From: a virus | Taxonomy: Duplodnaviria; Caudoviricetes | Virus record (IMG/VR): IMGVR_UViG_3300010352_000625 | Coordinates: 128,001-192,000 of that record | Direction: 5' to 3' (one strand) | Length of the DNA: 64,000 bases | Shown: piece by piece, positions 30,396 through 30,614 of the stretch | How positions within the stretch are numbered: the first letter of the stretch is position 1 | Layout: each line of letters starts with the position of its first letter | Notes under the pieces: generated by a model | The model's database searches: none | What the model saw: only the letters and a program-made list of their open reading frames with translations | What the model was told of the DNA's origin: nothing | Made by a program: the position numbers and the translations under genes

Positions 30396-30614
30396 TGTCG
30401 TGAAGGATTGTTTGACCTGTACTACAAATAACATCCGATTCATTATTGTAGTTTTTTGCTCCAGCATCTTACTGGTTCGTTAGCATTTCAGCTAATCTGT
30501 ACAGGACTATCCCCATGTTTAATAATTAAACAAGTCGTTCACTTGGGCTCTCTGTTACATTAACAATCTGGCTTCACTTGAACTAATTGAGCTACACCTT
30601 ATTTCTTCACAACA
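30396..30614 (-). ncRNA. ~220-nt structured RNA, raiA-motif-like
   Basis: Closing stem UGUUGUGAAG/CUUCACGACA; ordered blocks AAGUGAAGCCAG, CCCAAGU..ACAUGGG, AGUCCUG..CAGGUCAA; own promoter at about 30620-30648. Confidence 0.55.

Follow-up and report, generated by a model that had tools for sequence, protein, structure and literature searches.

An orphan structured RNA at the head of a tRNA operon in uncultured T4-like jumbo phages

Bacteriophage T4 encodes two small ncRNAs, rnaC (species 1) and rnaD (species 2), of 139 and 119 nt, which lie on the tRNA strand at the 3' end of the tRNA cluster and adjoin a homing endonuclease gene. Both are thought to be cut out of a tRNA precursor. To our knowledge, none of the stable RNAs found in phage tRNA clusters since T4 species 1 and 2 has a known function. 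A second group of phage-associated orphan RNAs, GOLLD and ROOL, measures several hundred nucleotides. These large, ornate RNAs often occur in phages and prophages near tRNAs (PMC5737381, PMC12286853) and form homo-oligomeric complexes (PMC12286853). The raiA motif is a highly structured RNA of ~200 nt with a long P1, multi-way junctions, two pseudoknots (PK1 and PK2) and 51 near-invariant positions, and is encoded by a single-copy chromosomal gene of Bacillota and Actinomycetota (PMC10861870, PMC12968392).

The stretch of DNA analysed here (the window, 64,000 nt) corresponds to bases 128001-192000 of a 206,669-bp IMG/VR virus record, which was judged complete and has a GC content of 26.4%. Its portal is of the T4 type, and its major capsid protein is gp23-like, with only 27% identity to the best match among cultured phages. 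All 20 tRNAs called by ARAGORN are located on the minus strand, as is a tmRNA (38812-39182, Rfam 97.1 bits), which is missing from the ARAGORN calls. The same strand carries a structured ncRNA of 220 nt at 30396..30615 (nt 1 is 30615; the window coordinate is 30616 minus nt). Its GC content of 36.8%, compared to 27.5% for the surrounding window, lies at the 93rd percentile.

Like rnaC and rnaD, this is an ncRNA gene on the tRNA strand of a T4-type tRNA cluster that also holds an endonuclease gene. In contrast to the T4 RNAs, it is found at the 5' end of its tRNAs, directly behind a promoter, and adopts a multi-junction fold; there is no homology in sequence or structure. Our covariance model of the phage RNA (R1, see below) reaches at best 12 bits on the T4 genome (NC_000866), at 41221-41292, away from rnaC/rnaD (70908-71171). 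GOLLD and ROOL are likewise phage-associated orphan structured RNAs that often adjoin tRNA genes, but they are far larger and their Rfam models give no match. The RNA is not a raiA RNA; it represents a new family within a known category, that of orphan structured RNAs in phage tRNA operons.

The RNA gene and its relatives

The gene is headed by a sigma-70-type promoter (30620..30648, minus strand) that matches the consensus in 12/12 positions. It consists of a -35 TTGACA (30648-30643), a 17-nt spacer and a -10 TATAAT (30625-30620) that is extended by a TG at 30628-30627. Transcription is predicted to start at A30615 or G30613. No other 12/12 site is present within 29500-31800. The whole genome contains ~29 perfect TTGACA-N16-18-TATAAT sites, with 23 on the minus strand. 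A second promoter with the common TTGATACTTGACA block is located at 24007-24040 (minus strand, ~24035), ~165 nt 5' of a 347-aa ORF.

Downstream of the RNA, tRNA-Gln(UUG) begins after 14 nt (30381-30305) and is followed by tRNA-Glu(UUC) (30302-30232) and tRNA-Pro(UGG) (30209-30132), all on the minus strand. The Gln and Pro genes are called by ARAGORN; the Glu gene, with the anticodon loop CUUUCUA, is detected by Rfam only. The initial annotation, made from the sequence alone, had placed a multi-stem RNA with its own promoter at 30396-30614, in front of tRNA-Gln, -Glu and -Pro. Its position and strand, the promoter and the tRNA order are all correct, the RNA being read on the minus strand from about 30615 to 30396. 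A small protein gene was ruled out: neither the ncRNA nor its homologs contain a conserved ORF, the longest ORFs measure 23-38 aa, and no ORF is conserved in any of the variants.

Several further genes are found around the RNA. Directly 5' of the promoter, at 30668-30751 (minus strand), there is a tRNA-like gene of 84 nt that ends in CCA. Its anticodon loop is CUUGAAA (Ser-UGA), its T-loop reads UUAAACU, and its "D loop" comprises 3 nt. It is missed here by both ARAGORN and Rfam; at the corresponding position of L196 and L198, after tRNA-Asp, a tRNA-Ser(tga) is called. A DUF559/MTES_1575-type endonuclease gene inside the tRNA cluster (28470-29618, minus strand) is probably a homing element, and in the relatives it is present as a 311-aa version or missing. 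An ART-PolyVal ADP-ribosyltransferase gene is located near the cluster (33496-34092, minus strand).

Direct searches for homologs of the RNA gave none. In a blastn search against cultured phages the promoter alone matched, scans of IMG/VR by exact words and by neighbouring proteins found nothing, and a scan with the promoter word gave 92 loci, all unrelated. The capsid relatives in IMG/VR are fragments or just 25-29% identical, and none has a homolog. Distant DUF5662 loci lie outside tRNA regions. Relatives were obtained through the DUF5662 protein encoded 2.8 kb downstream, whose cluster at 90% identity has members on longer contigs. This route gave three diverged copies: L196:7559-7786, L198:8428-8657 (the same sequence is present in L200) and L203:45-295, the last being the most divergent at about 70-75% identity. 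A pattern on the invariant P6-J6/7-P7 block, GCTGAAATGCNNNCGAACCAG, was then searched in metagenomes and added three full copies from JGI metagenomes (L216, L219 and L229) and a truncated one (L218). Besides the window RNA there are thus five further distinct versions, 70-95% identical, in metagenome contigs of related phages. The copies come from several independent samples (L196, L198/L200, L203, L216, L219, L229), and the RNA length across the family is 220-251 nt.

Some contigs were set aside. Five contigs found through the neighbouring 135-aa protein (L011-L015) carry an identical RNA and are 100% identical over 2.4-9 kb; they represent the same strain and are therefore uninformative for the comparison. 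L218 was left out; its match stops just 3' of P7, and it is probably a chimeric contig at an indel site. Two independent contigs, L014 and L015, end at the P7 loop (window ~30474), where the variants differ by an 8-nt indel. Together with the L218 break, these ends suggest that strains co-exist in the samples. L016 at first seemed to be a relative lacking the RNA, but L196 combines this tRNA-Ser(gct)/tRNA-Ile junction of L016 with the RNA, so that L016 is no evidence of absence.

The conserved stretch runs from the promoter to the last base of P1, outside of which the flanks differ. The 36-nt promoter block is identical across the homologs, with the exception of one spacer base in L203. It is thus essentially invariant, although the DUF5662 neighbour protein of the homologs is only 68% identical. 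At the homologous loci with called tRNAs, 11-15 nt separate the end of the RNA from tRNA-Gln(ttg) or from a tRNA-like element. The latter is seen in L203 (~310-421, plus strand), where ~110 nt between the RNA and tRNA-Gln form a tRNA acceptor stem and T-arm with a long internal insertion that ARAGORN does not call.

For the case of a negative raiA search, the initial annotation had proposed that a covariance model be built from viral homologs. Our model R1 (228 positions, 58 pairs) scores 215-281 bits on the known homologs and 247.8 bits, over the full length, on the window RNA. In the phage genome it has a single match, and there is none in 40 IMG/VR phage records, most of them T4-like, or in 120 Clostridia genomes. 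The invariant pattern has 20 chance matches in GTDB genome contigs, and R1 confirms no homolog among them. A 179-kb JGI contig of a relative with a 57% identical capsid protein is not among the pattern matches. The family looks confined to a narrow phage clade, represented so far in JGI, ENA and Logan assemblies.

Consensus fold and covariation

Folding of the single sequence gives -53 kcal/mol with z = -2.3, equal on both strands. With a z of this size and no strand difference, the single-sequence fold by itself shows little, and the structure was determined by comparison. The alignment (A2) contains 7 rows, of which 6 are distinct, at a mean column identity of 85%. RNAalifold yields a consensus of 59 pairs on the 7 rows, in line with the multi-stem RNA of ~220 nt that had been proposed from one sequence. 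In this consensus 97.1% of the cells are paired, compared to 93.1 +/- 0.6 in shuffled alignments. Eleven pairs show double (compensatory) changes, compared to 3.1 +/- 1.3 in the shuffles, and 0/500 shuffles reach any of the five measures. As a control, the 3' partners were slid by 1-3 columns, which leaves 37-43% pairing and 0-1 double changes. With six sequences, several of them mutual mosaics, these figures count cells rather than independent events. The signal is distributed over seven helices, and the unconstrained MFE structures of L196, L216 and L203 equal the consensus fold. G-U pairs, which would be A-C on the opposite strand, occur in some sequence at 8 pair positions and identify the minus strand as the RNA strand.

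The RNA is organised around a three-way junction of P1, Pa and P2, above which P2, P3, P6, P7 and P8 meet in a five-way junction. All helices are read on the minus strand. P1 (nt 2-11/211-220, 30605..30614 with 30405-30396) clamps both ends and is 100% paired. Its U5-G217 pair becomes U-A in 5/6 homologs, and L203 has one extra base on each strand, making a U-A pair. Pa, the 5' hairpin (nt 18-46, 30570..30598), is formed by nt 18-20/44-46 and 24-26/38-40 and closed by an 11-nt loop that holds an invariant GUUCA. In L198 and L229, G19-C45 changes to A-U and, by hand reading, G24-U40 changes to C-G. Residues 21-34 of Pa resemble a tRNA D-arm, and the same 11-mer is present in the tRNA-Arg at 30918-30908. 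In P2 (nt 48-54/204-210, 30562..30568 with 30412-30406), 3/7 pairs change on both sides. In L203 an A-U and a U-A pair are both replaced by G-C, which converts GAUUGUU/AACAAUC into GGGUGUU/AACACCC; the last pair changes from U-A to A-U in L196 and L216.

The P3 domain (nt 57-118, 30498..30559) consists of P3 (nt 57-64/112-118), which encloses P4 (nt 69-71/103-105) and, stacked on it, P5 (nt 82-90/94-102), with a 10-nt bulge (nt 72-81). Double changes are found at 4, 1 and 1 pairs of these helices, four of them in P3 itself, which reads UGUAAUG/CAUUACA in L196 and UGCAUAC/GUAUGCA in L203. Residue A61 is bulged in the window variant. An alternative reading of CCCAAG/CAUGG as an 11-nt GAAA receptor was dropped because covariation assigns these strands to the P4/P5 stack. 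The bulge contains an invariant UGAAC (nt 75-79) that is complementary to the GUUCA of the Pa loop (nt 33-37). The two strands may form a pseudoknot; both are invariant, so that this candidate pairing is free of covariation.

P6 (nt 121-136, 30480..30495) has a 5-bp stem and a U-GAAA-U loop, and is invariant in 7/7 rows. P7 (nt 141-155, 30461..30475) has an invariant CCAG/CUGG stem and a variable loop of 7, 15 or 16 nt, with a longer stem in L203. Residues 117-144 make up an invariant 28-mer that runs through P6 and J6/7 into the base of P7. P8 (nt 164-195, 30421..30452) is closed by the stem 164-170/189-195. In L203 its C168-G191 pair changes to U-A, and the stem extends to 9 bp with an inner hairpin. 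The joiner J8/2 (nt 196-203, 30413..30420) reads ACAGGUCA, contains the CAGGUCAA block of the initial annotation and is unpaired in the consensus.

Hairpins P5, P7 and P8 differ in length among the variants while their bases are kept. The joiners are A-rich, and the GAAA-type loop is invariant. Variable columns make up 31/103 of the unpaired and 32/116 of the paired positions. The unpaired columns are as conserved as the paired ones, which points to selection on tertiary contacts or on a binding surface. These comparisons establish the gene with its strand, promoter, boundaries and fold, as well as purifying selection on it, and we are highly confident that a real, selected structured RNA is encoded here. 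The result is a new covariation-backed family with a defined promoter, defined ends, a compact multi-junction fold and an invariant core, recovered from several independent samples.

Proposed processing and possible roles of the RNA

This previously uncatalogued structured ncRNA is known so far only from AT-rich, uncultured T4-like jumbo phages that form a narrow clade. We infer, and consider reasonably probable, that it is processed from a tRNA precursor, is stable and acts in trans. By analogy, the RNA is most likely a stable RNA released from a tRNA precursor as proposed for T4 rnaC and rnaD, to which it is unrelated. Host RNA polymerase would initiate at the consensus, early-type promoter and make a precursor that begins with the RNA and extends through tRNA-Gln, tRNA-Glu and tRNA-Pro. 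In phage tRNA precursors, the 5' ends are matured by RNase P. Its cut at the 5' end of the first tRNA would free the RNA with a tail of 11-15 nt, which exonucleases could trim down to P1. The 10-11 bp of P1 would clamp and protect both ends, so that the compact RNA may persist and, during infection, act in trans with a protein or RNA partner, to which it would be a scaffold or ligand. The family is well suited to the question of what part such RNAs play in infection, for instance in translation takeover, RNA repair or counter-defence.

It is also conceivable, if unlikely, that the RNA is a cis-acting leader of the tRNA operon that is discarded after use, and that protects the 5' end of the precursor, blocks Rho loading on a transcript that is not translated or presents the first tRNA to processing enzymes. 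In every case the RNA follows the promoter and precedes the first tRNA by 11-15 nt. No terminator separates the two, a U-run after P1 being present in the window variant only. A cis role for the downstream tRNAs is conceivable, as the RNA always occurs together with a tRNA. However, the five-way junction, the invariant 28-mer and the conserved loops exceed the needs of a 5' stabiliser. The second TTGATACTTGACA promoter has no related RNA behind it, R1 having a single match in the genome. A like promoter in relatives, after tRNA-Ser(gct) and just 5' of tRNA-Ile, also has no such leader (L016), and in L196 the gap between tRNA-Ser(gct) and tRNA-Ile is just 55 nt.

The middle strand of the RNA (nt 111-118) has two potential partners, P3 strand 57-64 and a near-repeat of it at nt 193-200, and could in principle act as a bistable switch that alters the junction and the fate or activity of the RNA or its precursor. 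The initial annotation had paired AGUCCUG with the CAGGUCAA block (nt 111-117/194-200). This helix is indeed part of the MFE structure, but of the window variant only, where the alternative fold is 3.6 kcal/mol better than the consensus (-51.7 vs -48.1 kcal/mol), but the conserved partner of the strand is nt 57-64. The two partners are near-repeats in every variant, and in L203 the change of A116 to G is compensated in both (U59 to C and U195 to C). On the alignment, though, the alternative helix pairs 86.8% of the cells with one double change, which is no better than shuffles (70/500 are equal), and in 4/6 variants it retains some 3-5 pairs, interrupted by a mismatch and a bulge. P3 itself has four double changes. 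We therefore regard a switch as quite unlikely.

In a further reading, which we consider improbable, the RNA is a functional module of phage tRNA operons in which the D-arm/T-loop-like 5' hairpin and the partner-swapping middle strand engage a tRNA-recognising factor. As a decoy or a sensor it might, for instance, be directed at a host defence that targets tRNAs or at an enzyme of tRNA processing, and it would be tied mechanistically to its tRNAs.

Comparison with raiA and other known RNA families

The initial annotation identified the RNA as a raiA motif, on the basis of remembered sequence blocks that match in order, and proposed a search with the Rfam model, naming the lack of a raiA score as the outcome that would speak against it. 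That outcome was obtained. At E<=10 the model RF03072 (209 positions, gathering score 101.3 bits) matches nothing in the full 207-kb genome or in 30200-30800 (601 nt). It also has no match in 30390-30620 (231 nt) in a search that reaches 8.3 bits, and none in L203, the most divergent homolog. As a positive control, the same model scores 180.6, 180.7, 171.3 and 119.4 bits in 4/41 Clostridia genomes, and 55.6 bits on a short clostridial variant.

The remembered blocks are genuine features of raiA: true raiA RNAs (L273-L275) contain GCCAG, CCACGU, GCAUGG, AAGUCCG and CCAGGUCA in that order, within P1b/P1c and the long-range helix of the Rfam structure. In the phage RNA the similar words belong to other helices. 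GCC pairs with GGU and closes Pa, CAUGG forms the 3' strand of the P5/P4 stack, and CAGGUCA corresponds to the unpaired joiner, whose sequence differs between homologs (AUAGGUUA in L198 and L203). Pairing of CAGGUCA as in P1b/P1c of raiA is contradicted by the compensatory changes of L203 in P2 and P3. Most blocks of the near-invariant raiA set (~51 nt; GUCUGUGG, GAAAGUC, UAGAAGUAAG, GAGAG, GCGAGU.UGGGG.CAAA..CCAGGUCAG) are missing. Only the short look-alikes GCCAG, CAUGG and CAGGUCA are present; UAGAAGUAAG and GCGAGU.UGGGG are absent, and GAGAG occurs in the window variant only.

That the RNA could still be a very divergent phage branch of the raiA family is highly improbable. The two share their size (~200-220 nt), a long closing P1, multi-way junctions, many invariant unpaired nucleotides and a few words, which in real raiA (GCCAG, CCACGU, GCAUGG, AAGUCC, CCAGGUCA) follow in the same order at roughly similar spacing. 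A 9-mer, CGAUGCCAG, is common to L203 and raiA. When R1 was run on raiA loci with filters off, an alignment of 8.6 bits fell exactly on the raiA RNA of L274; this is within the noise of a search that gave 46 matches, the best at 11.4 bits elsewhere, and that missed two other raiA loci. Pairwise alignments with four raiA RNAs are at chance level (most z values lie between -1 and +1; one of the 16 is an outlier at 3.4). RF03072 gives no score at all here, compared to 119-181 bits for true members, and the covariation-supported helix map differs from the raiA architecture (P1a-c, P3a/P3b, P4, P5, P6, PK1, PK2): the look-alike blocks lie in covarying helices that do not correspond to raiA P1b/P1c/P3. 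The phage RNA is also not a chromosomal locus of Bacillota or Actinomycetota, being located in a virus record with a T4-like gp23. Membership in the raiA family is thus largely refuted, and the host hint that had been drawn from it falls away, since raiA membership is rejected. Words in the same order are insufficient for assignment to this family, and a tempting misassignment is corrected. The remaining idea, a non-functional remnant of decayed tRNA fragments or repeats that folds by chance, could draw on the D-arm-like nt 21-34 and on a plastic region rich in odd tRNAs with a likely homing endonuclease, but it is extremely improbable, as the 11 compensatory pairs, the invariant promoter and the sharp conservation boundaries across diverged phages refute it, barring alignment artefacts.

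None of the 4227 covariance models of Rfam 15 matches the RNA, within which only chance-level scores of 8-21 bits are found; the tRNA matches in searches of this region stem from the tRNA genes next to it. Group I intron, RNase P RNA, 6S, SRP RNA, T-box, Y RNA, a tmRNA piece, retron ncRNA and omega RNA were each considered and rejected, with no Rfam match and the expected neighbouring genes absent. Y RNAs and YrlA, the ligands of Ro60, are closed like the phage RNA by a stem between the 5' and the 3' end, but the phage RNA does not contain their UGGGUCG...UUAUC handle and has no Y_RNA, sbRNA or YrlA match.

The same phage encodes a Ro60 ortholog (11179-12813, minus strand) with TROVE and Ro60 vWA domains (E 1e-63 and 1e-41), 18 kb from the RNA. 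Upstream of it, at 12900-13800 (minus strand), at least four repeated units start with UUGGGUCG and contain UUAUC, like Y-RNA handles. Within this Y-RNA-like array RAGATH-18 gives a sub-threshold match at 13249-13290 (minus strand; 32.1 bits vs a cut-off of 44.9). At 12921-13055 Rfam reports a sub-threshold match to ceN72-3_ceN74-2 (28.5 bits, E 0.006); nematode sbRNAs of this type are regarded as Y-RNA homologs.
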